From the NCBI GenBank assembly GCA_947502375.1, contig CANMZR010000001.1, positions 4,886 to 68,885 on the forward strand: a stretch of 64,000 nt of DNA, written 5' to 3'. Positions 1,384 through 25,422 of the stretch are shown in pieces. The notes beneath the pieces are model-generated. The model ran no database searches, had not been told where the DNA came from, and was given only the letters and a program-made list of their open reading frames with translations. The stretch comes from Polyangiaceae bacterium (GTDB lineage Bacteria > Myxococcota_A > Polyangia > Polyangiales > Polyangiaceae). The position numbers were made by a program, and so were the translations under genes. Each line of letters starts with the position of its first letter. The stretch's first letter is position 1.

Positions 1384-2580
1384 TCAGTGATGGGTCTCGG
1401 CTCCCTTTGCAGGTTTCGTGCCCCTGTCTTCGTTCTTCTTGTCCATCGGGCGCGCCGCCGCTTCGGCCGTTGCGGCCGCGGTCTTCGCCGCAGCGGTCGC
1501 TTCTTCGCTGTCCGCATAAACCGGGTCGAGCCCAATCACGATGTCGACGCGACGGTTTTTCGCGCGACCGGCTTCGGTATCGTTCGATGCCAACGGTTGA
1601 TGCTCGCCGAGCCCGGACGCCGCCAGTCGCGACGGCGGGACCCCAGCTTTTTCCATGAGAACGAGCACGACAGCGGTCGCGCGGGCACTTGACAGGTGCC
1701 AATTCGATGGGAAACGGGTCGTGTGGATCGGGCGATTGTCCGCATGCCCTTCGACTTTGACGAGCACGGGCTTGTCCTTGAGCTCTCGACCCAACGCCTC
1801 AAGCAACGAGAGTGCACGCGGATCGAGTTCGTCGGCGCCGCTGTTGAAGAGCACATCGATATCGAGACGCAGGACGAGCTCGCTGCGGCGTCGTAGGATC
1901 CGAAAGCCGATGGGTGGCGGCTCGGTCGGCTCAGCGCCCTTTTTCAGGCCTTTGTCGCCATCACCGCCACTGCCTTTTCCGGGGCCTTCGGTGCCGCTGG
2001 CACGGTTGCCAGTTTCACGGTCTCCGCGCCCGTCTTTGCCCGACGGAGCGGCGCTGGCTGCGTCGTGGGGGGTCGCCGCGTCACGGCCCCCGGCTTTCGC
2101 ACCATCGCCATCGCCACCGTCGCCCTTCGGCTTGCCCTTGCCGGCGCCTTCCTGATCCGAACGGCCGTTGCCCATGGCGAGAATGAGCCTCGCTTCCTGC
2201 GTGCCAGCAGAAAATGCCGCCATGGCGGCTTGAGCACTTTTCTGGTTCGGGGCCGAGTCCACGAGCGCTTGCAGTGCCTGCATCTGGATCTCGATCTGAC
2301 CGAGCTTCGTCTTCTCATTCGAGATGTACTTCACCCCCGCTTTGGCCATCATCGAGAACGGTGAGTTCGTGCCGTCAAAGACGCCCATCGAGCCCTGCAA
2401 GACGTGCACGCCCATCGCCTCGACGAAAGACTCGGAGTACCGGCCCACCTTGTTCGAGTCGGTCTGCGACACCGAAAACATGACGACGAAAAATGCGAAG
2501 AGCAGCGTGATGAAATCCGCGTAACTGATCAGCCACCGCTCGTGGTTGACGTGTTCGGGATGCTTGTGTTTCTTCGCCAT
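1384..2580 (-). CDS. motB: Flagellar stator protein MotB (OmpA-like peptidoglycan-binding C-terminus) with a long low-complexity linker
   Basis: N-terminal TM segment with the conserved Asp (ISYADFITLLFAFFVVMF). C-terminal OmpA-like motif (VEGHADNRPI...NWHLSSARA...NRRVDIVI). Sits directly downstream of motA. Confidence 0.9.
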   Translation of the reverse strand: MAKKHKHPEHVNHERWLISYADFITLLFAFFVVMFSVSQTDSNKVGRYSESFVEAMGVHVLQGSMGVFDGTNSPFSMMAKAGVKYISNEKTKLGQIEIQMQALQALVDSAPNQKSAQAAMAAFSAGTQEARLILAMGNGRSDQEGAGKGKPKGDGGDGDGAKAGGRDAATPHDAASAAPSGKDGRGDRETGNRASGTEGPGKGSGGDGDKGLKKGAEPTEPPPIGFRILRRRSELVLRLDIDVLFNSGADELDPRALSLLEALGRELKDKPVLVKVEGHADNRPIHTTRFPSNWHLSSARATAVVLVLMEKAGVPPSRLAASGLGEHQPLASNDTEAGRAKNRRVDIVIGLDPVYADSEEATAAAKTAAATAEAAARPMDKKNEDRGTKPAKGAETHH

Positions 2581-2715
2581 GAGCCTTGGAGCCGCGATGC
2601 ACGGTGAACCCTGACCCGGAACGCCAGGGGGAGTCGAACAGAGACCTCCCTGAGAGTAACGGCAAGTGGAAGAGAAGCTTGAGAAAAACGCGCGTCAGGT
2701 CGCTGCAGCCGTGGC

Positions 2716-3495
2716 TCAGCCACCCTCGGGCGCTGCCGTCTTGGCGCGCTCGCTTTCTTTCAAGAAGCTGTTCAGACGGTCGCGGACAAGCTTCGGGTTG
2801 GTACCCTCTTGAATCGCCAGCACCCCCTGCAGCATCATCTCTTGAACGTGCGCGGCCTCCTTCGCACGGAGCTTCACGCGACCGCCGAGGGGCATCATGA
2901 ACATGTTCGCGAAAGCCACCCCGTAAATCGTCGCAATGAAGGCCGTCGCGATGCCATGCCCCACCGCTTCGATGTCGGAGAGGTTTTTCATCACCTGGAT
3001 GAGCCCGAGCACCGCGCCGATGATCCCGACCGTGGGGGCATAACCTCCCGCGGCCTCGAAGGCTTTGCCTACGTTCTCGGCCTCTTCTTCCTCCTGCTGC
3101 ATCGATATCTCCATCGTGTCGCGGATGGTGTTCGAGTCAGCCCCATCGATCGCCATCATGAGCGCACGGGAGAGAAATGGGTGGGACACGTTCGGGGCGA
3201 GCTTCTCGAGACCGAGAATGCCTTCACGCCGAGCGCGCGTGGCAAGGTCGACGATCTCGTCGATGAGCTTACCGTGCTCGACATGCGCATTCTTGAAGAG
3301 CTTTCCGAGCCACCCGCCCATGCCCTTGATCACGTCCGGCGGAAACTGAACGAAAACCGCGCCGATGGTGCCACCGAGCACGATGATGAGCGCCGGACCA
3401 CCGACGACGTCACTGACGAGGCCGTGCTCGAGGTTGTTGCCCAAAAGCACCGCAAATGTGCCGAATATGATTCCGAAAACCAGACCAAGATCCAT
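2716..3495 (-). CDS. motA: Flagellar stator protein MotA (MotA/TolQ/ExbB family)
   Basis: 259 aa with four hydrophobic segments, a family-typical C-terminal half (GGYAPTVGIIGAVLGLIQVM...ATAFIATIYGVAFANMF), and context flbD-motA-motB. Confidence 0.9.
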   Translation of the reverse strand: MDLGLVFGIIFGTFAVLLGNNLEHGLVSDVVGGPALIIVLGGTIGAVFVQFPPDVIKGMGGWLGKLFKNAHVEHGKLIDEIVDLATRARREGILGLEKLAPNVSHPFLSRALMMAIDGADSNTIRDTMEISMQQEEEEAENVGKAFEAAGGYAPTVGIIGAVLGLIQVMKNLSDIEAVGHGIATAFIATIYGVAFANMFMMPLGGRVKLRAKEAAHVQEMMLQGVLAIQEGTNPKLVRDRLNSFLKESERAKTAAPEGG

Positions 3496-3498
3496 GAA

Positions 3499-3771
3499 TC
3501 AGGACTCCTCTTCCGGGTCCCGTGACGGGACCGCAAAGGCCAGCGGACGCTCTCCATCGCCGCGGCCGAGCGGACAGACGCCGGGGCCGAACGAGTGAAC
3601 GCGCCGGCGCAAGGCCACATAGCTGTCGATCACTTCCTCCAGGGACTCTCGAACGATGATGGTCTCGCCGCCGAGCATGCGCAAAGTCGTGTCGGGGGAA
3701 ACGTCGATGGTGACGATGTGGTCGGCGTTGATTCCGATTGTTTGCCGGTTGAGACGAGTCAGTTTGAGCAC
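3499..3771 (-). CDS. flbD: Flagellar protein FlbD
   Basis: LKLTRLNRQTIGINADHIVTIDVSPDTTL...IIVRESLEEVIDSY matches my recollection of the FlbD family (typical N-terminus MIKLTRLNG...). I chose the GTG at 3771. The ORF-track start at 3807 is also GTG, has no SD, and would lie upstream of the predicted sigma54 transcription start. Confidence 0.75.
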   Translation of the reverse strand: MLKLTRLNRQTIGINADHIVTIDVSPDTTLRMLGGETIIVRESLEEVIDSYVALRRRVHSFGPGVCPLGRGDGERPLAFAVPSRDPEEES

Positions 3772-3811
3772 GGTGTGAACTTTCGAGGTTAGATCGCCCC
3801 GACCCACTTAG

Positions 3812-3826
3812 GCAATTTTAGGGCCG
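3812..3826 (-). promoter_or_regulatory. Candidate sigma54 (-24/-12) promoter for flbD-motAB
   Basis: Minus strand reads cGGCCCtaaaaTTGCc, so GG and TTGC have the exact consensus spacing (TGGCACG-N4-TTGC). The predicted start near 3800 is about 29 nt upstream of the GTG at 3771. Confidence 0.45.
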
Positions 3827-3895
3827 TTTGCGAAATCGGAGAGCCGCGCTCCTCCTGGATGCCAACCGGCTCGGCGCAAGTCGTCCGCTCGCGGC

Positions 3896-3912
3896 TGGCA
3901 CGCCGTGTGCTT
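3896..3912 (+). promoter_or_regulatory. Candidate sigma54 (-24/-12) promoter for the flgB operon
   Basis: TGGCACG-ccgt-GTGC-tt has a perfect -24 element and correct spacing; the -12 element reads GTGC rather than TTGC. The predicted start near 3921 falls inside the first 17-bp repeat. Confidence 0.55.
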
Positions 3913-3913
3913 A

Positions 3914-3981
3914 GTGAAGTTGCTATGAGCGTGAAGTTGCTATGAGCGTGAAGTTGCTATGAGGGTGAAGTTGCTATGAGC
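3914..3981 (+). repeat. 4 x 17-bp perfect or near-perfect tandem repeat (GTGAAGTTGCTATGAGC) that forms the flgB leader and contains the flgB ATG
   Basis: Copies at 3914-3930, 3931-3947, 3948-3964 (last base G) and 3965-3981. Each carries an ATG (3925, 3942, 3959, 3976). Confidence 0.95.
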
Positions 3982-4371
3982 TCCATTCTCGGCAGCGTGG
4001 ACCCGCTCCACAGGGCGCTCGATTACCATCTGGCACGCCAGACCCTTCTCACGACCAACCTGACGCAGGTGGATACGCCGGGCTACAAAGCGCAGGACCT
4101 CGTGCGTGAAGCCGGAGAGTTCGGCGGTTTGCTTCAGGTCGAACTGCAAGCGAGCGCACCGGGGCATTTTGGCAGCGCGGGCGGGGGCAAAGCTCCCGAG
4201 TGGCACGTAGGGAGAGACGCGTTCGCCCCCGAGGGAACCGATGGCAACAGCGTCAGCCTCGATCGGGAAGCGGTTAAAATTGCTTCAAACAACGTTCGCT
4301 ACGACGCGATCACCTCGATGGTGAAGGGCGCGCTGGACAACCTCGACTGGGCCGTCAGGGACGGGAAATAA
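3976..4371 (+). CDS. flgB: Flagellar basal-body rod protein FlgB
   Basis: 131 aa. N-terminal rod motif (NLTQVDTPGYKA), a C-terminal VSLDREAVKIASNNVRYDA region, and position ahead of flgC. Confidence 0.9.
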   Translation: MSSILGSVDPLHRALDYHLARQTLLTTNLTQVDTPGYKAQDLVREAGEFGGLLQVELQASAPGHFGSAGGGKAPEWHVGRDAFAPEGTDGNSVSLDREAVKIASNNVRYDAITSMVKGALDNLDWAVRDGK

Positions 4372-4373
4372 CC

Positions 4374-4820
4374 ATGAGCGCAATCGGAGCTACACCGGGG
4401 ATTTTCACAGCGCTCGAGGTCGCAGGCTCAGGACTCTCGGCCGAGCGGGCGCGCATGAACGTCATCGCGTCGAACCTCGCGAACGCACGGACGACACGAG
4501 GCGCAGACGGGCAGCCCTACCGCCGGCTCGATCCTGTTTTTCAGTCTCGTTCGGTGAGCCCCGGCTCGTTCGATCCGGTCCTGCGGTCGATCAAAACCGT
4601 CGAGATGACGCGCGTACAGCCCGATCAGACCCCTGGTCAACTCGTGTACGACCCCCAGCATCCGGACGCCGACGCGGCAGGCTATGTCGAGTTACCGAAC
4701 GTCAATGTCGTGACGGAGATGGTCAACATGATGACTGCATCTCGAGCCTACGAGGCAGGCGTCACCTCCATCGAATCGATCAAACAGATGGCCGCCTCGG
4801 CCCTTCGGATTGGGCGGTAA
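4374..4820 (+). CDS. flgC: Flagellar basal-body rod protein FlgC
   Basis: 148 aa. SGLSAERARMNVIASNLANARTTR N-terminal motif and a C-terminal VNVVTEMVNMMTASRAYEA motif. Confidence 0.92.
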   Translation: MSAIGATPGIFTALEVAGSGLSAERARMNVIASNLANARTTRGADGQPYRRLDPVFQSRSVSPGSFDPVLRSIKTVEMTRVQPDQTPGQLVYDPQHPDADAAGYVELPNVNVVTEMVNMMTASRAYEAGVTSIESIKQMAASALRIGR

Positions 4821-4823
4821 GTC

Positions 4824-5195
4824 ATGGCGGCAACCGGAAGCCTTTACGGGATCCCAGAGGTCCGCACGAGCCCACTGCAGGAAGGCCGAGCCTTCGGCGG
4901 GGGCTCGGCACAGGGCGTTCAGGTCGGCGACCTCGACTGGGCCGATAAGTCCAACCAAACCGACGCGCTCAACGGCACCAGTTTCGGAGACTTGCTTTCG
5001 AAGGGGCTCGAAAAGACCAACGAACTCGGACACGTCGCCGAGGCCCAGGCCCAAGCGTTCGCCCGGGGCTCCTTCGATGATCTTCACGGCACGATGATCT
5101 CGGCAAAGGAAGCCGAGATTTCGCTTCGCATGGTCGGAACGGTCCGCACCAAGCTCCTCGACGCCTTCCACGAACTTTGGCGAATCAATGTCTGA
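4824..5195 (+). CDS. fliE: Flagellar hook-basal body protein FliE
   Basis: 123 aa. C-terminal LHGTMISAKEAEISLRMVGTVRTKLLDAFHELWRINV is typical of FliE. Gene order flgBC-fliE-fliF. Confidence 0.85.
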   Translation: MAATGSLYGIPEVRTSPLQEGRAFGGGSAQGVQVGDLDWADKSNQTDALNGTSFGDLLSKGLEKTNELGHVAEAQAQAFARGSFDDLHGTMISAKEAEISLRMVGTVRTKLLDAFHELWRINV

Positions 5196-6909
5196 AACTC
5201 GGACCGAACCCAACAAGAACGACCCCAACGCGCCGCTGCTACCGGCGGCCGCGCGGGATGTGCTGAACCAGCTTCAGAGCATCTGGCAGCGGCTTCCCTT
5301 CGCGCTGAAGCTGTTTGTGCTGTCGGGCGTCGCGACCGCGCTGGTCGTGGCCGCCTACTTCGCAGCGGCCCCGCTCTTGCGCGAGTATTCCGTTCTTTAC
5401 AGCCGCCTCGAAGGCGAAGATGCCGGAGCCATCGTCGAGAAATTGAAGGCTCAGAAAATCCCCTTCGAGCTGACGGGCGACGGCACCACAATCAAGGTCC
5501 CCACCGACAAAGTGCACGAGGTCCGCCTTCAACTCGCGGCCGAAGGGATCCCGAAAGGGGGTCACGTCGGCTTCGAGAGCTTCGACAACATGCGGCTCGG
5601 CGCGACAGAGTTCGAACAGCAGGTCGTCTACCGTCGCGCGATGGAAGGCGAGCTCGCACGAACCATCGGCACCGTTCACTCCGTGCAGAGTGCCCGGGTC
5701 CATCTCGTCCTGCCGAAGGCTTCCGTGTTTGCCCAGAAAAAGGAACCGGCAACCGCCTCCGTGGTTGTCAAACTCCGTGGCGCGCGGATGGAAGACGAGG
5801 AAATATCGAGCGTCGTGAGCCTTGTTTCTTCGGCGGTTCAGGGTCTCGATCCCGATCGCGTCTCGCTCGTCACGACGGACGGTCGCATGCTCCACCGCCC
5901 GCGGCCCGCCATGCCCGAAGGCGAAGCCGGCTCGACGAGCGCGTCGGAACAAGATCTCCTGACTCAGCGCCGTGGAATCGAGGCCCTTCTCGAAGAGCGC
6001 ACTCGCACGATGCTCGAGCGGGTCCTTGGAGCCGGGCACGTGGACGTGCGTGTGACCGCCGACCTCGATCGCGCCAAAGTGGAAACAACCACCGACAAGT
6101 ACGATCACAGTCGGTCGTCGATGCGCAGCGAACAGCAGCTCGTCGAGCAGTCCGCGACGGGAGCGCCCGTCGACAACACGGTGGCTGGAGTACCCGGAGC
6201 CGAAGGCGCCCTGCCAGGCACGGAGACCGCCGTCGGGGCCGGCGCCGACGCCGCACCCGGCGGGACGCTGCGCCGTCAATCCACACGAAACTACGAAATC
6301 GACCGGGTCCAGGAGCGCCGCGTCAGCGTCACGCAGAACGTGAAGCGGCTGGCGGTTGCCGTGGTGATCGATGCCGTTCCAAGCGAGGGCCCGAACGGCA
6401 CCGCGGCGCCGCGCACGCAGCCCGAGATCGACAAACTCGCTCAGCTCGTTCGGAGCGCAGTCGGCTTCGACGAAGACCGAGGCGACATCGTCACGGTCGA
6501 GTCTGTGCCCTTCTTCATCGAGAAAACTCCCGAGCCTTTCGAGGAGCCGACCCTCTTGCCGCTCTCGGAGCCAATGAAGGCGAAGTACGGTAAATACCTG
6601 CCTTTGGCGCGAGTCGTAGCCATCACGCTCGGTGCCGCCATCGCCTTGATGATCCTGCTGCGCGCGGCCCGCAAGTACCGAGAGCGCCTGGCGAAGGCCA
6701 GAACGAAGGAGCTTGCCGCGCAAGAGCGCATCGTGAAACTCCAGCTCGAGGCCGCCAAGGACAACCCGCAGCGTCCTGCCGAGGAGCTGGTCGCCTTCCG
6801 CACCGAGGCCCTCCGCCGCGCAAGCGACGACCCGGCCACCGCGGCTCTCGTCTTGCGGCATTGGCTCGCAGGCTATGAGCTCCCAGTGACGAAGGACAAC
6901 GCGGCCTGA
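5188..6909 (+). CDS. fliF: Flagellar MS-ring protein FliF
   Basis: 573 aa with an N-terminal TM segment, a YscJ/FliF-type ring-building region (LYSRLEGEDAGAIVEKLKAQKIPFEL...), and a C-terminal TM segment. Overlaps fliE by 8 nt. Confidence 0.92.
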   Translation: MSETRTEPNKNDPNAPLLPAAARDVLNQLQSIWQRLPFALKLFVLSGVATALVVAAYFAAAPLLREYSVLYSRLEGEDAGAIVEKLKAQKIPFELTGDGTTIKVPTDKVHEVRLQLAAEGIPKGGHVGFESFDNMRLGATEFEQQVVYRRAMEGELARTIGTVHSVQSARVHLVLPKASVFAQKKEPATASVVVKLRGARMEDEEISSVVSLVSSAVQGLDPDRVSLVTTDGRMLHRPRPAMPEGEAGSTSASEQDLLTQRRGIEALLEERTRTMLERVLGAGHVDVRVTADLDRAKVETTTDKYDHSRSSMRSEQQLVEQSATGAPVDNTVAGVPGAEGALPGTETAVGAGADAAPGGTLRRQSTRNYEIDRVQERRVSVTQNVKRLAVAVVIDAVPSEGPNGTAAPRTQPEIDKLAQLVRSAVGFDEDRGDIVTVESVPFFIEKTPEPFEEPTLLPLSEPMKAKYGKYLPLARVVAITLGAAIALMILLRAARKYRERLAKARTKELAAQERIVKLQLEAAKDNPQRPAEELVAFRTEALRRASDDPATAALVLRHWLAGYELPVTKDNAA

Positions 6910-7038: not shown

Positions 7039-8019
7039 ATGGCGACAGCGAACCTCACCGATCCCCAAAAGGCGGTTCTGTTCCTCCTGTCCCTCGACGA
7101 GGCCGTTGCAGCACCGATCGTCAACGAACTTGACCCGCTGCAGCTCCGCAAGCTCCGCGAGATAGCGAGTTCCATGCACGAGGTCAGCACGAGCGCGCTC
7201 GACGAGACTTACAAGGAGTTCGTCACCCGGAGCGCCGTCGCCGTCGCCGTGCCGAAAGGCGGCCTTCCATACCTTCGTCGTCTCACCCGCGGCGGCTTGA
7301 ACGGCAACCCTGATATCCCCGTTGACGTCGAGAATGACGGGCCGATCCCGAAGCTCGAAGCGGCGCCGCCCGAAGCCGTGGCGGCACTCTTGTCCGAGGA
7401 AACAGACCAACTCGTGGCAGCGATCCTGGCGCGCCTCGATCCGAAGCGCGCGGCACCGATCCTTGAGGCGCTACCGCCGGCGCGGGAAGCCGCCATCCTC
7501 ATGCGCATGACGAAGATGACCGACCTCCCCGTGGAGGTGTTGAACGACGTCGCCGCGGCGATTGCAGCTGAGCTGCCACAAGCGAGCAACGAGGCCTCCC
7601 TCACACTCGACGGCATCAAGCGGGCGGCGGACATCTTGAACTCGGGCGGCCGTCAGATGTCGGCGGCGGTGCTCGAACAAATCGAAGAGAAACAGCCCGA
7701 GCTCGCGCGCGACATGCGCCTCGCTATGTTCACCTTCGTCGATCTCGCTCGCCTGGACGCCAAATCAATGCGAACCCTGCTCCGCGAGGTGCCGACCGAA
7801 CGTCTTACGATCGCGCTAAAGGGCGCGCCTCAGGAGGTCATCGACGCTATCTTCCTCGGGCTTTCCGAGCGCGCATCCGCGCTCATTCGTGACGATCTCG
7901 AGGTGCTTGGGAAGGTCCGAAAATCGGAGGTCGAGGGCGCCAGGCAAGAGGTCGTTCAGGTCGCGCTACGACTCGAGGCAGACGGGGTGCTCGATCTTGG
8001 GCGAGGGGGCGACGAGTGA
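7039..8019 (+). CDS. fliG: Flagellar motor switch protein FliG
   Basis: 326 aa. LTDPQKAVLFLLSLDE N-terminus, an MFTF hinge motif, and a charged C-terminal torque-helix region. Confidence 0.93.
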   Translation: MATANLTDPQKAVLFLLSLDEAVAAPIVNELDPLQLRKLREIASSMHEVSTSALDETYKEFVTRSAVAVAVPKGGLPYLRRLTRGGLNGNPDIPVDVENDGPIPKLEAAPPEAVAALLSEETDQLVAAILARLDPKRAAPILEALPPAREAAILMRMTKMTDLPVEVLNDVAAAIAAELPQASNEASLTLDGIKRAADILNSGGRQMSAAVLEQIEEKQPELARDMRLAMFTFVDLARLDAKSMRTLLREVPTERLTIALKGAPQEVIDAIFLGLSERASALIRDDLEVLGKVRKSEVEGARQEVVQVALRLEADGVLDLGRGGDE

Positions 8020-8022
8020 GCG

Positions 8023-8751
8023 ATGGCAGGGAGCGATAAGGGCACGAGGAGCCGGGCTGTACCTTGGGCTGAAACCGCGGGGGAACCGGTCGAGCGACCG
8101 CGCTGGACCGAGCCGGCGAGCTCGGACTCAGGTGCTCATCCGCTCGGTTCCAAACCCGGACCGGGAAGCCACTTCGCGGCTCGAGGCTCCGATGCTCGCG
8201 CGGGCGGGCGGGGCGTGTTTGGAGGCGCGTTTGACGGGTCGCGGGGAGGCACGCACGAAGGACACGAGGATGGCGAGCAAACCCCGTCGTCGAGCCGCGA
8301 TTTTGAGCGCGAACTCGATGTCATGACGGCCGAGGTCGAGTCCCTCCAGCAACAACTTGTCACGATGGCTTCGTCGGCGGAGCACGTGCGACGTCAGCTC
8401 CTTGAGACGTGTGAAGCCGATGTCGTCGAGCTCGCCGTGGCGCTTTCAGAGAGGATCGTCGGCCGCGAGTTGACCACCGACACCGGACGCATTGCGAGCT
8501 GGGCAAAAAAAGCTCTCGAGTCGCTCGCCGAGCAACGCGACCTGCTCGTGGTGGTGTCGCAAGACGTGTTCGATTCAGTCCCGAGAGATGCGTGGCGCGA
8601 TGCGGAAGGGCGCGTATTCGTGCCTCGCGTGGACGCGAAACTCGCTCGCGGCTCGTGCGACATTCGGAGCACCGTCAGTCGCATCGACGGCAGCCTGACG
8701 GCCCGCATGCGAACCATCGTCGAATCCTTGGGCGTCACCGAGGAGCGTTGA
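8023..8751 (+). CDS. fliH: Flagellar assembly protein FliH with a low-complexity N-terminal extension
   Basis: The C-terminal half (coiled coil plus ELAVALSERIVGREL...) resembles FliH/YscL. Sits between fliG and fliI. Confidence 0.7.
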   Translation: MAGSDKGTRSRAVPWAETAGEPVERPRWTEPASSDSGAHPLGSKPGPGSHFAARGSDARAGGRGVFGGAFDGSRGGTHEGHEDGEQTPSSSRDFERELDVMTAEVESLQQQLVTMASSAEHVRRQLLETCEADVVELAVALSERIVGRELTTDTGRIASWAKKALESLAEQRDLLVVVSQDVFDSVPRDAWRDAEGRVFVPRVDAKLARGSCDIRSTVSRIDGSLTARMRTIVESLGVTEER

Positions 8752-8755
8752 AGCC

Positions 8756-10125: not shown

Positions 10126-10578
10126 ATGTCGAGTCGGCAGAAATTAAAGCGAATCGTCCGCTTGGTAGCGCTCCGTGAACGAGCGCGCGACGGGGCGCAG
10201 GCGGAGCTTGCCGCAGCCCAGCGAGCCTGCGAGACCGCCCAGGCGCGGGTGCAGGGAGCCGAGCGTCACTGGAACGAGGAGGCGACGAAGACGCAAGATG
10301 CGGCGTTGGACTCGGTCCACGAATTCGGGCTTCGGCGGATGCATTTGGCGTCCCTCCGTCGCGAAATTGAGTTGGCAAAGGAAGTTCACGAGCAACGGTT
10401 GCTCGTGGAGCGCCAGAAGATCGACGCTGCAATCCACGCTCAGCGCGAGCTTCGAAAAATGGAGCTATGGGGAGACTCGGAAGCCGAACTGCTCCGCGTC
10501 GAGGGTGAGCGCGCCGACCAGCAGCTCACCGATGAGCTAGCGGCACGCATCGTGCTTCATTCCCCGTCGACAGATTGA
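10126..10578 (+). CDS. fliJ: Flagellar export chaperone/stalk protein FliJ
   Basis: 150 aa, all coiled coil, directly downstream of fliI. Confidence 0.7.
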   Translation: MSSRQKLKRIVRLVALRERARDGAQAELAAAQRACETAQARVQGAERHWNEEATKTQDAALDSVHEFGLRRMHLASLRREIELAKEVHEQRLLVERQKIDAAIHAQRELRKMELWGDSEAELLRVEGERADQQLTDELAARIVLHSPSTD

Positions 10579-17630: not shown

Positions 17631-18304
17631 TGGGAGCCACGCCGGGCACGCAGGACCTCGTCGAGCTGGCGAACAAGGGGCTCACCGGCCCTCTGAAGGT
17701 CCTTGCACTGCTCACGATCCTGTCGCTCTTGCCGGCCATCGTGCTCTCGATGACCTCCTTCACGCGTTCGATCATCGTGCTCTCGTTCGTCCGCACCGGC
17801 ATCGGCTCACAGCAGACTCCCCCCACTCAGGTCATCGTTGGAATCGCCCTCTTTTTGACGATGTTCACGATGGCTCCGGTCACCGAGCGCATCGTCGAAG
17901 ATGCGTACAAGCCCTACTCTGCCGGCAAGCTCACCGAGACCGAAGCCATCGACAAGGCGGTCACTCCCATTCGAGCGTTCATGCTCAGGCAGACCCGCGA
18001 AGCCGACCTGGCCCTGTTCTACAACGCCGCCAGAATGGACTTTCCGAAGACCGAGACCGAGGTGCCGATGCGAATCGCGATCCCTGCGTTCGTCATCAGC
18101 GAGCTGACCACTTCGTTCCAGATGGGTGTGCTCGTGCTCCTTCCGTTTCTGCTCGTGGACATCGCCGTGGCATCCACCTTGATGAGCATGGGCATGATGA
18201 TGGTTCCACCCACAAGCATCAGCTTGCCGCTTAAATTGCTGCTTTTCGTCGTTGTAGACGGGTGGCATCTGCTCACCGAATCCCTTCTTCGGAGCTTTGC
18301 ATGA
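17627..18304 (+). CDS. fliP: Flagellar export gate protein FliP
   Basis: 225 aa. LTILSLLPAIVLSMTSFTRSIIVLSFVR...IPAFVISELTTSFQMGVLVLLPFLLVDIAVASTLMSMGMMMVPP are canonical FliP motifs. Confidence 0.95.
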   Translation: MMGATPGTQDLVELANKGLTGPLKVLALLTILSLLPAIVLSMTSFTRSIIVLSFVRTGIGSQQTPPTQVIVGIALFLTMFTMAPVTERIVEDAYKPYSAGKLTETEAIDKAVTPIRAFMLRQTREADLALFYNAARMDFPKTETEVPMRIAIPAFVISELTTSFQMGVLVLLPFLLVDIAVASTLMSMGMMMVPPTSISLPLKLLLFVVVDGWHLLTESLLRSFA

Positions 18305-18570
18305 ACATCGATGAAGCCATCATGCTGATGACCGATCTCATCAAGACGACGATCTTCGTGGGTGGGCCCGTGCTTGGCGCGGCCTTGGTGGGCGGTGTGC
18401 TCATCGGCATCGTGCAGACCGCCACCCAGATCAACGAGGCCAGCATCGGCTTCGTCGTGAAGGCGGGATGCGTCATGCTCGTCGTGCTGGTGGGAGGCAC
18501 CTCACTTGCCTCGCGCACCGTGCAATACACGCGCGAAACCTTCTCGCGCATCACCCAGGTCGTCCGCTAA
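18301..18570 (+). CDS. fliQ: Flagellar export gate protein FliQ
   Basis: 89 aa from the ATG at 18301 (ATGA overlap with the fliP stop). Two TM segments and an IVQTATQINEASIGFVVK motif. Confidence 0.9.
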   Translation: MNIDEAIMLMTDLIKTTIFVGGPVLGAALVGGVLIGIVQTATQINEASIGFVVKAGCVMLVVLVGGTSLASRTVQYTRETFSRITQVVR

Positions 18571-18578
18571 AGCCCCCG

Positions 18579-19355
18579 ATGACTGCGACCGGGATGCTCG
18601 AGTACGCCATCGCAATCGCGCTGGTCTTCAGTCGCATCGGTGGCTTCCTCGTCGTGTCACCGATCCCCGGTGCCTGGGTTCCAAAAGAAAGCCGAGCGAT
18701 GCTCGCCGCGACGCTGGGCCTCACCATCGGGATCCTTCTCGGGCCACCGCGAGCCGAACTTCACTTTGGCCTCGATCTTTTGCTCGTCACGGCCCGCGAA
18801 GCGGCAGTGGGCTTGCTCATCGGCGGAGCGTTTCGTCTCGTTATCATTGCAGCGGAGTTCATGGCCGGGCTCGTGAGCCAGGCGTCGTGGCTCTCGGCAC
18901 CCAGCTCAATGAACCCGGACTTCGGCGGCCAGACCCAAGCCATTGGGCAAATTTCCATTGTGCTGGCGCTCTTGCTCGCGATCGCAAGCGGGACGCATCG
19001 CACCGTATTGGCCTACCTCATCGAGTCGTTTCGCGTGCTTCCAGTCGGCTCTGAGATGAACATCAGCGGGGCCATTCCATCCTTTCTCTCGCTGGTGGGG
19101 CGCTCGTTCGACGTGGGAATGAGTCTCGCACTACCCGTCCTGGGCATCTCCTTGGCGGTGCAGGCTGCGCTCGCACTGGTCTCCAGAGTCGCGCCGAACT
19201 TACAGATTTTTAGCGTCGGCTTCGCAGTCCTCGTCGCCAGCGGACTCATCACGTTCATGTCTTCGTTGCCGATGATGGCCGAGGGAATGGTCGGCTATTA
19301 CCAAGTCATTCCGGGTTTCCTTGATGACCTACTCCTCACGTTGAGCGAGGTCTGA
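18579..19355 (+). CDS. fliR: Flagellar export gate protein FliR
   Basis: 258 aa from the ATG at 18579. Polytopic membrane protein (VFSRIGGFLVVSPIPG...), located between fliQ and flhB. Confidence 0.9.
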   Translation: MTATGMLEYAIAIALVFSRIGGFLVVSPIPGAWVPKESRAMLAATLGLTIGILLGPPRAELHFGLDLLLVTAREAAVGLLIGGAFRLVIIAAEFMAGLVSQASWLSAPSSMNPDFGGQTQAIGQISIVLALLLAIASGTHRTVLAYLIESFRVLPVGSEMNISGAIPSFLSLVGRSFDVGMSLALPVLGISLAVQAALALVSRVAPNLQIFSVGFAVLVASGLITFMSSLPMMAEGMVGYYQVIPGFLDDLLLTLSEV

Positions 19356-20473
19356 TGGCAGCCGAAGGCGACAAGCCCCATGCCGCAACAGCCAAGCGTC
19401 GAGAGGACGCTCGCAAGGAGGGGCGCTTTGCTCGCGCGCGGGACACCACCACCATCGCGGTTTTGGGCGCCGTCCTTGCTGCAACGCTCGCGTACTCTGA
19501 TCGACAAGCGCAAGTCATTTACGAGTTCTTCCAGCGTTGCCACGGCGATTTGTCGGCCGTTCAACGAGGAGATGGAGACGTGATCGCAGCGGCTATTCCG
19601 GGCGCGCTCTACACCCTGGCGGTTCCTCCGGCCATCGCCGCGGCGGTTGCGGGCGGCCTGGCCGGTGCATGGCAAGCCGGGTTTCGCTTCTATCCCGAGA
19701 TGCTTTCGCTCAAGTTCGAAAAGCTGAATCCGCTGCCAAAACTCAAAGAACTGGTGAACTTCAAGCACGCCATCGGCGAGCTCATCATCTCGATGATGCG
19801 CGTCTGCATCGTGGCGTGGGTCTGTTACCGCGAGCTCTTGCGCGACGTGCCGCCCCTGCTCGGAATGACGGGTGCTCCGGTGGCACCGTCCGTGACGCTG
19901 ATAGCCCAAATTCTCACACGCCTGGCGTTGAAGTCGCTGGCCGTTCTCGTCGTTCTGGGGGTCCTGGACTACGCCTACAACCGCTACCAGCTCGAGAAAT
20001 CGATGCGCATGAGCGACCAGGAACTCCGCGATGAAATGCGGCAGTACGACCAGAACCCCAAGATTAAAGCAAAAATCCGAGAAAAAATGCAGCAGGCGTC
20101 GCGTAAGCGCGTCCTCGCTGCGGTCGCGAGCGCCGATGCCATCGTGACGAATCCGACCCACATCGCCGTCGCCTTGCGCTACTCGGACAAGGACTTTGCA
20201 CCGGTGGTGGTCGCCAAGGGTCACGACGAGTTCGCCCTTAAAATCCGCGCAGAAGCACGCAAGCACGGGATCCCGATCCTGGAGAACCGGCGCCTCGCGC
20301 GGGCCCTCGATGCAGAGGTCGAAATCGGGCGATCGATCCCCGGTCAACATTACGTCGCCGTCGCCAAAGTTTTGGCGTTCGTCTACTCGCTGAGAGGCGC
20401 GAAGAAGCGCCGAACGCCACGAAAATCAGCAAAAACGGCGTCACGGTCCGCTCAGGTAGCGCGTACGGCATAA
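19355..20473 (+). CDS. flhB: Flagellar export switch protein FlhB
   Basis: 372 aa. N-terminal KPHAATAKRREDARKEGRFARARD and the NPTH autocleavage motif (IVTNPTHIAVAL). Confidence 0.95.
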   Translation: MAAEGDKPHAATAKRREDARKEGRFARARDTTTIAVLGAVLAATLAYSDRQAQVIYEFFQRCHGDLSAVQRGDGDVIAAAIPGALYTLAVPPAIAAAVAGGLAGAWQAGFRFYPEMLSLKFEKLNPLPKLKELVNFKHAIGELIISMMRVCIVAWVCYRELLRDVPPLLGMTGAPVAPSVTLIAQILTRLALKSLAVLVVLGVLDYAYNRYQLEKSMRMSDQELRDEMRQYDQNPKIKAKIREKMQQASRKRVLAAVASADAIVTNPTHIAVALRYSDKDFAPVVVAKGHDEFALKIRAEARKHGIPILENRRLARALDAEVEIGRSIPGQHYVAVAKVLAFVYSLRGAKKRRTPRKSAKTASRSAQVARTA

Positions 20474-20525
20474 GGGCTTCCGTCGCCGAAACTGGCACGG
20501 ACCATGAATAAGCACGGCCCTAGGC

Positions 20526-22652
20526 ATGGAGAGCGCGAACCTAGCTCCGCTTCGGATTCGGGACATCGCCGTTCCCCTCGGGATCATCGGCGTCGTCCTG
20601 ATGATGGTGATGCCGGTGCCGCCGATCTTACTGGACGTGCTCCTGACGTTCTCGGTCGCGCTCTCGATCATCATTTTTCTCACCGCGTTGTTCATTCGCG
20701 ATGCGCTCGAGTTCAGCGCTTTTCCGACGATTGTTCTCGTGGCCACGCTGTTGCGCCTCAGCTTGAACGTCGCGAGCACGCGGCTCATTTTGCTTCACGG
20801 CCACGAGGGTTCCGACGTCGCCGGTCAAATGATCGAGGCCTTCGGTCACTTCGTCGTCGGCGGTCAAATCGTCGTCGGCCTCGTCGTCTTTCTCATTCTC
20901 GTCGTCATCAACTTCGTCGTCATCACGAAGGGCGCAGGCCGCATCGCAGAGGTTGCGGCGCGTTTCACCCTCGATGCCATGCCGGGCAAGCAGATGGCCA
21001 TCGACGCCGACCTGTCGGCGGGGAATCTGACGAACGACGACGCGCGAAAGCGCCGCAAGGAGCTCGAGCAGGAAGCGGATTTCTACGGTGCGATGGATGG
21101 TGCGAGCAAGTTCGTCCAAGGCGACGCGGTCGCGGGGCTGCTCATCACGGCCATCAACCTCATCGGCGGTTTGATCATCGGCGTGGTTCGTGGAATGGAG
21201 CTCGGGAAATCAGCCGAGACGTTCTCCGTACTCAGCGTCGGAGACGCATTGGTGTCGCAAATACCGGCACTTTTGATCTCATCGGCCGCCGGCATCGTCG
21301 TGACGCGAAGCGCCGCCGGCGAGCAGATCGCCGACACCTTCATGACGCAGCTCTTCGGGCGCCGCCGCCCGGTGGCCATGACCGCGGGCATCATCGCAGC
21401 CCTTGGACTGGTGCCGGGCATGCCGACCCTGCCGCTCTTGAGCTTCGCGGGCTTGCTCGCATACGTCGCGAGCCGCCCCGCGGAGGCTCCCAAGAAGGAT
21501 GCCGTCGTGGGTGCCACGGGCGCGACCAGCGGTAGCATCGGTGCCGGTGCCGAGGGCACGAAGGCACTGAAGCCCGGCTCGGCCGAGGACGTGGACAAAG
21601 CGCTCGGGCTCGACGTGCTCACGCTGGAACTCGGCTACGAGCTCGTCCACCTCGTCGACGCGGCCGCGGGCGGAACGCTGCTCGACCGAGTGGGTTCGCT
21701 ACGTCGCGAAATCGCGCGGGAGCTTGGGATCGTCGTCCCGTCGGCTCACATTTGCGACAACCTGGACCTGCAGCCGGGGCAATATCGCATTCTATTCTCA
21801 GGGAACGCCATCGCGGAGGGAACGTGCGTCAATGGACGCATCCTGGCTATCGACCCAACCGGCAACTCGCCGCCGCTCGAAGGTGATGCGACCACCGAGC
21901 CGACCTTCGGCATGCCGGCTCGCTGGATCCTGCGCCGTGACAGCGACATGGCCGAGGCGCTCGGGTACACGGTCGTGGACCACGCAACGGTGATGGCCAC
22001 CCACTTCGGCGAGCTCATCCGAAACAACGCCTACCGCCTGATCGGTCGCCAAGAAGTCCAGCATTTGCTCGATCTTCTTGCGAAGAAGTATCCGAAGCTG
22101 GTCGATGACGTGGTCCCCACGCTGCTCACCCTGGGTGATATCCTCCGCGTGCTGCGCAACCTCCTACGAGAACATGTCAGTGTCCGAGACCTTCGGACGA
22201 TCATGGAGTCGCTGGCCGATCTCTCCGAGCAGACGAAAGACTCCGAGCAACTGACCGAGCTTGTGCGCGAGCGACTGGCGACGCAGATTACAGCGGCCGT
22301 CACGGGACGGGACGGCTCCGTCGCCGCATTGGCGCTCGACCCGCGCCTCGAGGATACCCTGCGAACTTCGCTCCGCGAGATAGCGCAAGGGATAGGCGGC
22401 GCGCTCGACCCCAAGCTGCTAAACGACCTGGCACAGCAGGCGCAGGGCGCACTCTCGAAATTCGCAGCATTATCCGTCAGTCCCATCGTTATTGCGCCCC
22501 CGGACCTTCGCCGTTACGTCCGCGCGATCTTCGAACACAAGGTTCCGCAATACGCGGTGGTGTCGTTCCGCGAAGTCGAACCGGCAGTCCCGCTGCGCGT
22601 CGTTGAGTCACTCGGACGTGGCGCGGTCCATGCATTGGGACAAGGAGTATGA
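20526..22652 (+). CDS. flhA: Flagellar export gate protein FlhA
   Basis: 708 aa with the FHIPEP signature region (VVITKGAGRIAEVAARFTLDAMPGKQMAIDADL) and a large cytoplasmic C-terminal domain. Confidence 0.96.
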   Translation: MESANLAPLRIRDIAVPLGIIGVVLMMVMPVPPILLDVLLTFSVALSIIIFLTALFIRDALEFSAFPTIVLVATLLRLSLNVASTRLILLHGHEGSDVAGQMIEAFGHFVVGGQIVVGLVVFLILVVINFVVITKGAGRIAEVAARFTLDAMPGKQMAIDADLSAGNLTNDDARKRRKELEQEADFYGAMDGASKFVQGDAVAGLLITAINLIGGLIIGVVRGMELGKSAETFSVLSVGDALVSQIPALLISSAAGIVVTRSAAGEQIADTFMTQLFGRRRPVAMTAGIIAALGLVPGMPTLPLLSFAGLLAYVASRPAEAPKKDAVVGATGATSGSIGAGAEGTKALKPGSAEDVDKALGLDVLTLELGYELVHLVDAAAGGTLLDRVGSLRREIARELGIVVPSAHICDNLDLQPGQYRILFSGNAIAEGTCVNGRILAIDPTGNSPPLEGDATTEPTFGMPARWILRRDSDMAEALGYTVVDHATVMATHFGELIRNNAYRLIGRQEVQHLLDLLAKKYPKLVDDVVPTLLTLGDILRVLRNLLREHVSVRDLRTIMESLADLSEQTKDSEQLTELVRERLATQITAAVTGRDGSVAALALDPRLEDTLRTSLREIAQGIGGALDPKLLNDLAQQAQGALSKFAALSVSPIVIAPPDLRRYVRAIFEHKVPQYAVVSFREVEPAVPLRVVESLGRGAVHALGQGV

Positions 22653-23920
22653 CGATGAACCGCACCTTCCGGGGACGCACCTTGAGCGAAGCTCGCGATG
22701 CCGCAGAGACCGTGTTCGGTCCAGATGTCGTCGTCTTGCAACGGCGCAAGGTAAAGCAGAAGGGTTTTTCAGGCGTCCTCGGCGCCACCGAGTTTGAAAT
22801 CGAGGTGGGCCAGAGCGTCACCGGAGCGATGCTCGACGGAGCACTTGCAGAGGCACCGGTCGCACGTGGGTATGCGCCGTCAAGGACTTCCGTGCCGGAG
22901 ACCACCGGGACTTTGCACTTTGCCCGGGGAGTTTACGAGGACGGCGAGGAGGCTCCCGAGCAGGGCGGCGGCCGAGCGTCCAGCGCCGACATCGCGCGCA
23001 TCGAAAACGAGGTGCGCGCCGTGCGAGCCATGCTTTACCGAATGGCGAGCTCCCCCGACAAGGTTCAAAGCCAACTACACAGCATTCGCCGAGCGGTGGA
23101 TGAGATGGCACCACGGACGAGCGCCCCCGAGCGCGTCGAGCGAATGATCGACGACAGTGGTTTGACGGGAGCGCCGGCACGCGCACTTTCGAAGCGACTG
23201 CGTCACCATGAGGGCGACGATGAGAGCCTGGTGGAAGCCTATCGGGACGCACTCGCCGACCTCATCAAGGTTCGCGCCTGGCCCCTAGCGACCACGGAGA
23301 GACGCATGATAGCGCTCGTAGGTCCGCCTGGTGTCGGCAAGACCACCACCGCGGCGAAACTGGCCGCCGCCGCCATCGCGAACCACGGGGCAACCGTAAC
23401 GTTCGTCGGCTGCGATACGTACCGCGTCGGTGCCGTCGAGCAACTCGAGTGCTACGCGGATTTGCTCGGGTGCGAGTGCATCATCGTGAAGCAGCAAAAA
23501 GAGCTGCACCGGGCGATCCGTAAGTCGGAGAGCGACATCGTCATCGTCGACACCGCAGGACGAGGCCCCGAGGGCGAACAAGCGGTCGAGCTCGGCGTGG
23601 GCGCGACACGACAGCGCGACGCGAAGGGAACTGGCTGGGAGGACCGCACCCGTCACGTCCTTCTCTGCCTCGACGCGGCGTTGAGGTACACGGACGCCAC
23701 GGCGGTTTGCGCTCGCTACGCGGCCTGTTCGCCGACCGCAATCGCCATCACGAAACTCGACCTCACAACGGCCCCCGGTGGCCTCATTCACGGTCCCGCC
23801 TGCGCGGAGTTGCCCATCACGCTCCTCTGCCACGGACAGCGTGTCCCCGAAGACATCGCGCCGGCCACCGCCGGGCGCATTCTCGACTACCTGGCGCCAC
23901 GGCATCGTTACGCCAACTGA
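22649..23920 (+). CDS. flhF: Flagellar SRP-type GTPase FlhF
   Basis: 423 aa with a basic N-terminus and an SRP54-type G domain (ALVGPPGVGKTTTAAKLAA...IVIVDTAGRGP...ITKLD). ATGA overlap with the flhA stop. Confidence 0.9.
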   Translation: MTMNRTFRGRTLSEARDAAETVFGPDVVVLQRRKVKQKGFSGVLGATEFEIEVGQSVTGAMLDGALAEAPVARGYAPSRTSVPETTGTLHFARGVYEDGEEAPEQGGGRASSADIARIENEVRAVRAMLYRMASSPDKVQSQLHSIRRAVDEMAPRTSAPERVERMIDDSGLTGAPARALSKRLRHHEGDDESLVEAYRDALADLIKVRAWPLATTERRMIALVGPPGVGKTTTAAKLAAAAIANHGATVTFVGCDTYRVGAVEQLECYADLLGCECIIVKQQKELHRAIRKSESDIVIVDTAGRGPEGEQAVELGVGATRQRDAKGTGWEDRTRHVLLCLDAALRYTDATAVCARYAACSPTAIAITKLDLTTAPGGLIHGPACAELPITLLCHGQRVPEDIAPATAGRILDYLAPRHRYAN

Positions 23921-23976
23921 GCCGTGCGAGAGACTTTGCATTACACAATTGCGTTACGCCCCCGAGATCCGCTCTG

Positions 23977-24693
23977 ATGGCCTTAGCTCAAGTCAACATG
24001 AACGCTCCGAAGCGAACCCTCTCCCGCGAGGACTACGAGCGGTTTCTGCCGCTGGTGAGACGCATCGCCATGCGATTGGCGCGTCGAGTTCCCAGTCACA
24101 TCAGCATTGGAGACTTGATTTCATGTGGCTGGGTCGGGCTCGTCGAAGCCTTTGCGCGAAGCGCTCCCGAGATGCCGACGGAGGAGTTCGAAGCCTATGC
24201 GTCGCACCGAGTTCGCGGAGCGATGCTCGACTACTTGCGCGGACTGGACCCCGCCACACGCCAGGCGAGGAACGCTTCGCGCCGAGTCACGCGCAGCATC
24301 ACGGACCTGACCCGTGATCTCGGTCGGCCGCCGGAGGAGGAGGAGATCGCGGACGCACTCGGTCTCGATCTCGACGGCTACCGGAACCTCCTGACACAAA
24401 TCTCGAGTGCGGGCATGAGCCGCCTCGAAATCGTCGATCTCGATCAGATCGACGTTGCCAGCGACAAGAACGAGGCCCCCGACGAAGTGGCGGACCAGCG
24501 CATGCTCGCAGCCCACGTCGCAGGGGCCATCGAGCGGTTGCCGTTACGGCTGCAGCAAGTTCTTGCGCTCTATTATCAAGAAGACTGCACCTTGCGCGAG
24601 ATTGGTGCGGTGCTGCAGGTGAGCGAATCGCGGGTGTGCCAGCTTCATGCCGAGGCGATGCACCGACTGCGCGCAGACATCGGTAAGGAGTAG
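23977..24693 (+). CDS. fliA: Flagellar sigma factor FliA (sigma28 family)
   Basis: 238 aa from the ATG at 23977. Region 2 (LISCGWVGLVEAFARS...YASHRVRGAMLDYLR) and region 4 HTH (TLREIGAVLQVSESRVCQLHAEAMHRLR). The ORF track extends upstream into the flhF 3' end. Confidence 0.88.
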   Translation: MALAQVNMNAPKRTLSREDYERFLPLVRRIAMRLARRVPSHISIGDLISCGWVGLVEAFARSAPEMPTEEFEAYASHRVRGAMLDYLRGLDPATRQARNASRRVTRSITDLTRDLGRPPEEEEIADALGLDLDGYRNLLTQISSAGMSRLEIVDLDQIDVASDKNEAPDEVADQRMLAAHVAGAIERLPLRLQQVLALYYQEDCTLREIGAVLQVSESRVCQLHAEAMHRLRADIGKE

Positions 24694-24696
24694 GAC

Positions 24697-25422
24697 ATGG
24701 CGGATGGCATTTACGCAGCATTGAGTGGAGCGCTCGCGCACTACACTTCGCTCGAAGCGACTGCCCAGAACCTCGCCAACATCGACACAACCGGTTACCG
24801 GGCGGTCACGCCGGTGTTCCATGAAGTCCTTTCGCGAGCGCAGCGTCCGAGCGAAACCATTCGCTTTTCGGCGGTTCGGAAAACCGCCATCGACATGACT
24901 CCCGGTGCACTCCGTGAGACCGGTGGCTCGCTCGACATCGCGCTCGGGCAGAATTCTTTTCTCGCGGTTCAAACCCAAGCGGGAGAGCGTTACACCCGAG
25001 CCGGGTCCCTCAAGATCGCGCCCGACGGCACGCTGACGACCCAGCGCGGCCAAACCGTGCTGAGCGACGCGCGCAAACCCCTCGTCGTGAGCACCGTTTC
25101 GGGTGCTGAAGTCAACGCGCAGGGTGAAGTCACGAGCTCGGGTCAATCCGTCGGCTTTCTGCGACTGGTGACGTTTGCCCGACCGGATCAAATGGCCTAC
25201 GAAGGGCAAGGGATCCTCCAAGCGCAACCCGAGGCCGGGGCGCCCGTCCAAAGCAAGGAGACGGTCGAGGTCGGTAAGCTCGAAGAGAGCAATGCCTCCA
25301 CCATCCGCGCGATGACCGATCTCATGGCTGCGAGCCGCATGTTCGAAGCGATGGAGCAGGCGATCACGTCCTTCAATCAGATCGACCGACGCGTCATCAA
25401 CTCGGTGCCGAAGTTCGGCTGA
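24697..25422 (+). CDS. flgF: Flagellar basal-body rod protein, FlgF-like
   Basis: 241 aa. N-terminal GIYAALSGALAH...AQNLANIDTTGYR and C-terminal LEESNASTIRAMTDLMAASRMFEAMEQAI. Length and N-terminus fit FlgF better than FlgG. Confidence 0.8.
   Translation: MADGIYAALSGALAHYTSLEATAQNLANIDTTGYRAVTPVFHEVLSRAQRPSETIRFSAVRKTAIDMTPGALRETGGSLDIALGQNSFLAVQTQAGERYTRAGSLKIAPDGTLTTQRGQTVLSDARKPLVVSTVSGAEVNAQGEVTSSGQSVGFLRLVTFARPDQMAYEGQGILQAQPEAGAPVQSKETVEVGKLEESNASTIRAMTDLMAASRMFEAMEQAITSFNQIDRRVINSVPKFG

Follow-up and report, generated by a model that had tools for sequence, protein, structure and literature searches.

A flagellar gene block with a FliM lacking the CheY-docking peptide in an uncultured freshwater lineage labelled Myxococcota

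Flagellar genes have been reported in the Myxococcota since 2008, when a 55.7-kb flagellar gene cluster was described for Anaeromyxobacter dehalogenans 2CP-C together with swimming of strain K, and when the authors argued that this cluster is ancient (Thomas et al. 2008, PMC2330069). Since then, flagellar assembly genes have been listed for Myxococcota metagenome-assembled genomes (MAGs) from Zodletone (Murphy et al. 2021 preprint, 10.1101/2021.07.06.451402), a 2025 study reported high expression of flagellum and pilus genes, including those for flagellins, across Myxococcota and Bdellovibrionota MAGs from the Zhenbei seamount (PMC11937823), and a 2026 preprint counts the Myxococcota among the motile phyla. 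Here we analyze a block of flagellar genes in a stretch of 64,000 nucleotides (64 kb; hereafter "the window") of contig CANMZR010000001.1 from the Polyangiaceae bacterium assembly GCA_947502375.1. An initial annotation of the window had implied that flagella would be surprising in a myxobacterial phylum. In the light of the earlier reports this was overstated, and the block is a further, well-resolved example and no new category.

The block resembles the Anaeromyxobacter cluster in that both are large and contiguous, include motAB, and belong to a myxobacterial lineage. The comparison, which relies on the published description, also reveals differences. In the Anaeromyxobacter cluster, che and mcp genes are inserted between motAB and the fli genes, fliC is present, and fliJ, fliK, flgA and flgJ were reported missing, whereas the block from the Polyangia-labelled lake plankton has no che genes, contains fliJ and a fliK-like gene, and would have its late genes outside the window. 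With the Zodletone and seamount MAGs, the window shares an origin from aquatic non-soil Myxococcota with flagellar assembly genes. Those MAGs represent anoxic-spring and marine lineages described with no gene-level anatomy, whereas the window stems from a freshwater lake and its operon, promoter and FliM are resolved.

The gene order of the block can also be compared with more distant systems. Long fla/che operons of the flgB-to-sigD type are found in Bacillus subtilis, spirochaetes and Thermotoga, and have the order flgB-flgC-fliE-F-G-H-I-J-(fliK)-flgD-flgE-...-fliL-M-N-O-P-Q-R-flhB-A-F-...-sigma-28, with flbD present. The window shows this likeness but departs from the type by a divergent flbD-motAB operon, which in relatives runs on into flgG...fliW, by having neither flhG nor che genes in the operon, and by a sigma-54-type instead of a sigma-A promoter before flgB. 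The non-flagellar type III systems of Myxococcus xanthus have homologous export-gate proteins, including a FliO homologue, but are without the hook, rod, FliG and MotAB stator, all of which the window possesses. The AglRQS gliding-motor stators of Myxococcus are proton channels of the MotA/MotB family, in which AglQ and AglS are not known to have a peptidoglycan-binding domain. In contrast, MotB of the window combines MotB_plug and OmpA domains and is encoded in a flagellar operon.

Gene content and conservation of the flagellar block

Pfam and NCBIfam profile searches of the window's open reading frames (ORFs) identified 26 contiguous full-length flagellar genes in two divergent sets at positions 1384-25422 (Table 1). 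Three genes (flbD-motAB) are located on the minus strand, and the other 23 follow each other almost gaplessly on the plus strand in the order flgB-flgC-fliE-F-G-H-I-J-fliK-like-flgD-flgE-fliL-M-N-O-P-Q-R-flhB-flhA-flhF-fliA-flgF, with no intergenic gap within the block large enough for an extra gene. The initial annotation had counted 27 genes, although its own list also sums to 26. Its description of a contiguous, divergently arranged block with no premature stops was borne out by near full-length profile coverage with zero internal stops, and the residues that it had named as intact in MotB, FlhB, FliG and FliI were all seen. Most scores were far above the family cut-offs, and those of the five export gate proteins FlhA, FlhB, FliP, FliQ and FliR exceeded the Pfam cut-offs by far. 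Besides this gate, the window encodes the FliHIJ ATPase complex, the MS and C rings, the proximal rod, the hook and the MotAB stator, as well as the placement GTPase FlhF, FliL and the sigma-28 factor FliA. Such an inventory corresponds to a diderm flagellum powered by a MotAB stator. The match to FliJ was weak, as was the Pfam FliJ match on an identical protein, and the position of the fliK-like gene between fliJ and flgD is kept in relatives. Secretin and needle families were undetected among the window genes, with the hook, MotAB and FliG present instead; the block does not appear to be a non-flagellar type III secretion system of the injectisome or Myxococcus type.

The closest relative with long contigs, L088 (GCA_947475525.1; FlhA 89% identical), carries the flagellar block with the same non-flagellar flank, which consists of genes for a Rieske oxygenase and an S8 protease. 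Across 15 genes compared between the window and L088, lengths were identical in 11, those of FlgD, FlgE and FlhA agreed within 5 residues, and FliK differed (562 vs 519 residues). The ratio of nonsynonymous to synonymous substitution rates (dN/dS) lay at 0.03-0.20 in 14 flagellar genes and reached 0.49 in FliK, a low-complexity protein, at a dS of ~0.7-1.9, and it was 0.08 and 0.21 for the neighbouring Rieske and S8 protease genes, respectively. The low dN/dS despite the high dS indicates that the block has been under purifying selection in both lineages since their split. The dN/dS values against two more distant relatives, L092 and L094, were left unused because synonymous sites were saturated. 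Block and remainder of the window were also alike in composition, as the initial annotation had stated (G+C content 63.3% vs 64.0%; G+C content at third codon positions, GC3, 0.752 vs 0.754; tetranucleotide r = 0.99).

The order fliJ-fliK-flgD-flgE-fliL-M-N-O-P-Q-R-flhB-A-F-fliA-flgF is kept in L094 (GCA_041389685.1, labelled "Polyangiaceae bacterium"; FlhA 72% identical) and, at 67% FlhA identity, in L091 and L092 (contigs of 2.6 and 5.7 Mb). A search with FlhA retrieved at least 120 clusters with 64-99% identity to the window protein. When 201 FlhA sequences (the window, the 120 nearest clusters and the 80 best hits from other phyla) were arranged in a neighbour-joining tree, the window and the 120 clusters formed one group, whose 121 sequences are mutually at least 62% identical and never share more than 50% identity with the 80 best hits from other phyla. 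Among the matches listed in a FlhA scan of a genome collection were relatives with 42-48% identity from many phyla.

Organism-labelled FlhA relatives (66-84% identity) carried the labels Deltaproteobacteria (84%), Myxococcales (77% and 67%), Polyangiaceae (72% and several at 66-68%) and Myxococcota (72%), with a Planctomycetota label at 66% as the lone exception. Relatives of a non-flagellar DUF255 protein encoded elsewhere in the window were labelled Deltaproteobacteria, Polyangiaceae, Polyangiales and Myxococcales at 53-62% identity; further relatives had one generic Pseudomonadota (58%) and one Acidobacteria label (50%). Identical copies of window proteins were found in the NCBI MAG GCA_947498525.1, in ENA lake assemblies including a 73-kb scaffold, and in Logan assemblies of ERR2681672 and in SRR28327194, of which ERR2681672 is a 50-m sample taken from Lake Soyang in July 2014 (PMC12254480). 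Since identical proteins occur in lake assemblies, the organism is a freshwater lake plankton bacterium. Taken together, these data support as host an uncultured planktonic member of the Myxococcota, from a lineage with MAGs labelled Polyangiaceae, Myxococcales or Deltaproteobacteria.

In our assessment, the block very probably represents the early and middle part of the regulon of a working flagellum in an uncultured freshwater myxococcotal bacterium, and was inherited within a large Myxococcota-labelled clade with no recent acquisition. As judged from its genes, this organism would be able to swim. Of the two origins offered by the initial annotation, which itself leaned away from a recent transfer, a flagellated lineage within or near the Myxococcota thus agrees better with the labels, shared flank, gene order, composition and purifying selection than does a recently acquired island. 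With this block, there is further evidence for flagella being common among the uncultured Myxococcota of aquatic habitats, and the non-flagellated gliders of the textbooks therefore represent the cultured soil lineages only. The single-operon order, the sigma-54-type promoter, the split of the late genes to both sides and the FliM without CheY dock provide handles on whether the ancestor of the Myxococcota was flagellated and on how planktonic cells steer.

Table 1 Positions of the flagellar genes, neighbouring genes and sequence elements discussed in the text (window coordinates unless a relative is named).
Feature	Position	Strand	Evidence or remark
Small Cys-motif protein with Gly-rich (GGVGGV/GGATGV)n	357-812	-	Conserved gene next to motB on its downstream side; tandem repeat of 9-bp units at 389-611
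Conserved 182-aa hypothetical protein	799-1347	-	Directly downstream of motB; orthologues 49-74% identical after motB in relatives
motB, stator subunit	1384-2580	-	MotB_plug 72.9 bits, OmpA 64.9 bits; channel Asp in ISYADFITLL; peptidoglycan-binding OmpA-type domain
motA, stator subunit	2716-3495	-	MotA_ExbB 94.7 bits, MotA_N 28.8 bits
flbD	3499-3807	-	FlbD 61.8 bits; other assemblies start at 3771 (90 aa)
Sigma-54-type -24/-12 promoter TGGCACGCCGTGTGCT	3896-3911	+	Upstream of flgB
17-bp tandem repeat GTGAAGTTGCTATGAGC, four copies	3914-3981	+	flgB leader, between sigma-54-type promoter and flgB
flgB, proximal rod	3976-4371	+	TIGR01396 57.8 bits, below cut-off 59.05
flgC, proximal rod	4374-4820	+	Pfam
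fliE	4824-5195	+	Pfam
fliF, MS ring	5188-6909	+	Pfam 209 and 132 bits
fliG, rotor/switch	7039-8019	+	N, M and C domains; MFTF motif
fliH	8023-8751	+	Pfam
fliI, export ATPase	8756-10084	+	Walker A GTGVGKST, Walker B LLMMDS
fliJ	10126-10578	+	Weak, TIGR02473 27 bits (cut-off 50.45); position conserved
fliK-like, hook-length protein	10580-12268	+	Flg_hook 28.2 bits (cut-off 29.8)
flgD, hook cap	12335-13114	+	Pfam
flgE, hook	13155-14498	+	Pfam, NCBIfam
fliL	14532-15050	+	Pfam
fliM	15105-16193	+	Divergent, NCBIfam 67 bits (cut-off 219.6); no CheY-docking peptide
fliM of relatives compared	L088 4581-5669; L094 4690-5673; L092 5358-6161		No CheY-docking peptide
fliN	16360-16668	+	Pfam
fliO, long (321 aa)	16665-17630	+	Pfam, NCBIfam
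fliP	17627-18304	+	Pfam 253.5 bits
fliQ	18301-18570	+	Pfam; 89 aa as called in relatives
fliR	18579-19355	+	Pfam; 258 aa as called in relatives
flhB	19355-20473	+	Pfam; NPTH autocleavage site
flhA, export gate	20526-22652	+	Pfam 835 bits
flhF, signal recognition particle-type GTPase	22649-23920	+	G1, G3 and G4 present; just under equivalog cut-off
fliA, sigma-28	23977-24693	+	NF005413 211.2 bits (cut-off 201); TIGR02479 207.9 bits (cut-off 189.6)
flgF, proximal rod	24697-25422	+	TIGR02490 171.2 bits (cut-off 178.5)
S8/PA-domain protease	26656-30294	+	MYXO-CTERM-like tail GGCTCS...LLRRRERRRR at 30181-30294; conserved non-flagellar flank, host marker
DUF255 protein	41403-43721		Non-flagellar

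Late genes and alternative explanations

Several observations weigh against the reading of the block as part of a working, vertically inherited flagellum regulon. The 64-kb window contains no genes for flagellin, FliD, FliS, FlgG, FlgH, FlgI, FlgK or FlgL, and no start of FlgG was present in the 356 bases to the left of the Gly-rich gene downstream of motB. In the window's genus, the Rieske oxygenase and S8 protease genes occupy the position after flgF, where L092 and L094 have a glucosaminidase gene, a gene for a flagellin of 270-276 amino acids, fliD and fliS. Because the window has no late genes, the completeness of the flagellum in this genome is deduced from relatives. Moreover, FliM is divergent and scored far below its family cut-off, and in none of the four clade members examined (the window, L088, L094 and L092) does it have the N-terminal CheY-docking peptide (LSQxEIDALL). 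Neither che genes nor flhG occur in the block. A consensus search of the window for sigma-28 promoters gave chance-level matches only, none of them convincing. Finally, the taxonomy of the relatives consists of submitter-given MAG labels, several of which are the generic "Deltaproteobacteria".

The alternative that survives best accepts long residence in the clade but places the origin of the flagellum elsewhere, in that an ancestor of the Polyangia-type clade could have obtained it from another phylum and not from the ancestor of the Myxococcota. L032, a GTDB genome labelled Myxococcota, has a FlhA only 44% identical to that of the window and no closer to it than other phyla are, which implies that Myxococcota-labelled genomes carry more than one flagellar lineage. 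In addition, the gene order closest to that of the Anaeromyxobacter cluster was found in Desulfuromonas (Thomas et al., PMC2330069). These findings would fit such an ancient acquisition, but no candidate donor emerged, as all other phyla sampled are at about the same distance from the window's FlhA (42-49% identity). Furthermore, the clade is large and deep, and the flgB-to-fliA single-operon order is the widespread ancestral arrangement. We therefore consider an ancient transfer unlikely, with a chance that still deserves attention.

The contig could also lie outside the Myxococcota, either because MAGs were wrongly labelled or because the lineage is part of a neighbouring phylum in which flagella are the rule. 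The labels all come from submitters, many are the vague "Deltaproteobacteria bacterium" and one FlhA carries the Planctomycetota label, and the G+C content of 63-64% is low for classic myxobacteria. The MYXO-CTERM-like tail that the initial annotation had recognized on the S8 protease scored 15.7 bits in the window and thus below the cut-off of 20 (TIGR03901), whereas the tail of the orthologous protease in L088 passed with 23.2 bits. A myxosortase gene was absent from the window. Against a misplacement, besides the score of the L088 tail, independent submitters arrived at the labels Polyangiaceae, Polyangiales, Myxococcales and Myxococcota for the flagellar and the non-flagellar gene alike, and the window contains islands of the DUF2169/VgrG/TIGR02270 type, as described for Myxococcus. 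An origin outside the phylum is, in our view, quite improbable.

Slightly less probable still is a relic or repurposed export apparatus, in which the core would have been kept for secretion or another role with no filament. Flagellar type III remnants in Lysobacter and the non-flagellar type III systems of Myxococcus are models for such a fate. It would be consistent with the lack of late genes in the window, with the other genes found in its genus at the flagellin position of L092 and L094, and with the lost CheY-docking peptide of FliM. However, purifying selection acts on intact genes for FlgE, FlgD, the FliK-like protein, the rod, FliL, FliG, FlhF and FliA, and for a MotAB stator that has both its plug and its peptidoglycan-binding domain. 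The retention of hook, rod, stator, FlhF and FliA argues against a relic, because a system used solely for secretion would not need them.

Relatives with the same block, moreover, carry a full late gene set. On a 31-kb JGI/NCBI contig (which carries P0266) and on the ENA scaffold L099, motB is followed by the 182-aa gene, the Gly-rich gene, flgG, an flgA-like gene, flgH and flgI, and both run on into a gene resembling the FlgJ N-terminus, flgM, a small gene, flgK, flgL, csrA and fliW. L099 shares 52-78% identity with the window over FlgC, FlgB, FlbD, MotA, MotB and the 182-aa protein. The late genes of the relatives were recognized by NCBIfam with 356.6 bits for FlgG (cut-off 252.75), 46.5 for FlgM (40.75), 293 for FlgK (170.75) and 164 for FlgL (127.2). 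The initial annotation had taken an absence of flagellin, hook-junction and rod-completion genes as the mark of a remnant; these genes are present in the relatives, and the genome from which the window derives presumably has them as well. An attempt to trace the flagellin of this genome by means of a relative's flagellin was dropped, as two flagellins of the clade are only 48% identical to each other and matches were not assignable.

A recent transfer of the block from another phylum into a non-flagellated myxobacterial genome is scarcely credible and, for practical purposes, excluded by the uniform composition, the coherent FlhA clade and the gene order kept down to 67% FlhA identity. In favour of a transfer, cultured fruiting myxobacteria have no flagella, the block is a compact one, and VgrG/PAAR cargo islands follow at some distance in the same window. 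However, neither G+C content nor GC3 nor tetranucleotide usage sets the block apart from its surroundings in the window, the 89% identical L088 has the block in the same chromosomal flank with saturated synonymous sites, more than 120 clusters with Myxococcota-type labels share 62-99% FlhA identity compared to at most 50% for other phyla among the 80 best genome hits, and no integrase, tRNA or mobile-element genes flank the block.

Rotor switch, promoters and the flgB leader

The most original leads of this analysis are the FliM without CheY dock and the repeat in the flgB leader. Of 34 FliM-like ORFs in loci from other phyla, 30 had the docking peptide that is missing from the four clade members, and an LSQxEIDALL-type motif was not found in FliN either. 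No flhG (encoding a MinD-like ATPase) is located between flhF and fliA in the window (23920-23977), and the same applies to L088, L092 and L094. With no che genes or flhG in the block and a FliM without CheY dock, the control of rotation may be atypical. Contig L093 (ENA ERZ27263797 k141_505706; FlhA 81% identical) was rejected as evidence because it is chimeric, being 100% identical to L088 from inside flhA onwards and unrelated to it before (~27% identity). Its left half contains a different flagellar operon, and the FliM encoded there has the CheY-docking motif.

Upstream of flgB, the pattern TGGCAC-N6-TGC has its sole exact match in the 64 kb, 66-80 bases before the flgB start (3896-3910; 0.48 matches expected per window). 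A TGGCACG-N4-GTGCT element precedes flgB also in L097, L099 and L100, and thus in four lineages including that of the window. Genes for sigma-54 activators (Sigma54_activat) adjoin the cluster in L092 and L094, and none was found in the window. This putative sigma-54-dependent promoter would drive the long flgB-to-flgF operon. Between promoter and flgB lies the 17-bp tandem repeat, in which each upstream copy forms a mini-ORF (MSVKLL-stop) whose TGA overlaps the ATG of the next copy. In other assemblies of the species, the copy number is 2.9-4 or a scaffold gap takes the place of the array, and the more distant relatives L097 and L099 have no such repeat.

In the proposed cascade, which would be of the sigma-54-dependent kind seen in Vibrio, Pseudomonas and Campylobacter, transcription from the sigma-54-type promoter would yield the products of the flgB-to-flgF operon, and FliA, encoded near its end, would then switch on late genes located elsewhere, with FlgM and CsrA-FliW, which were seen in relatives, as the usual checkpoints. 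A GCCGTT-type variant of the sigma-28 promoter, which was found before the flagellin gene in L092 and L094, had no match in the window.

Tentatively, and with a chance that we rate as rather low, a widespread aquatic clade of Myxococcota may swim with a switch that lacks the CheY-docking peptide of FliM, so that rotation would be unswitched or steered other than by phosphorylated CheY at the FliM N-terminus, and the sigma-54-type promoter with its variable array of 17-bp mini-ORFs could tune or phase-vary the flgB-fliA operon in this species. Either mode of rotation would be in keeping with a cluster that has neither flhG nor che genes.

A motif CCC(T/A)(A/G)AAATTGCCT is conserved 20-60 bases upstream of flbD (~3790-3830 in the window; also in L099 and L100) and may serve the flbD-motAB operon as a promoter or leader element. 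L084 carries two copies of a 19-bp unit that includes this motif.

Low-complexity proteins and the flanks of the block

Two proteins of the block vary in length. The FliK-like protein contains a (TASE)13 stretch encoded by a 12-bp DNA repeat (11068-11227), its length among close relatives is 562, 519 or 483 amino acids, and the 73-kb scaffold has an uncalled stretch at this site. In MotB, the plug/transmembrane part is joined to the OmpA domain by an unusually long linker of low complexity (residues ~130-215) that is rich in Gly, Asp and Lys, and the protein comprises 398 amino acids in the window, 417 in L097 and 335 in L099.

To the left of the block, the 182-aa protein, the small genes near motB and several other window ORFs had no match in Pfam and NCBIfam. 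A metagenome scan with the lineage-specific 182-aa protein retrieved one 2.2-kb contig. The adjacent Gly-rich protein has the Cys motif PSCVPSDACLR..DC..G.TC..GRC, and L099 encodes the same motif and Gly repeat (3906-4568), with a scaffold gap there. Several independent assemblies end or show gaps of N inside this repeat gene, which is probably the reason why contigs break just beyond motB.

To the right, the S8 protease with its GGCTCS...LLRRRERRRR tail, a Ser/Thr kinase and the DUF2169/VgrG islands were found as the initial annotation had described them, together with a MacAB-TolC-type efflux set and the DUF255 protein. Scans of the window for tRNAs and Rfam families gave no match, and ribosomal protein or rRNA genes were not present either. 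The minus-strand region 44881-64000 comprises three tandem VgrG genes, two DUF2169 genes, a PAAR-like toxin gene, a 3-oxoacyl-ACP-synthase-like gene and two genes for TIGR02270-like HEAT proteins; these are cargo islands of type VI secretion, a system for which the window has no core genes. Exact look-ups of a DUF2169 protein and a VgrG protein of the window found no record of either. Synteny with L088 stops right after the S8 protease (window 30300-64000 vs L088 19883-22133), and the best DUF255 relative outside the window's own species shares 62% identity. On these grounds, the right two-thirds of the window appear to be a variable region.

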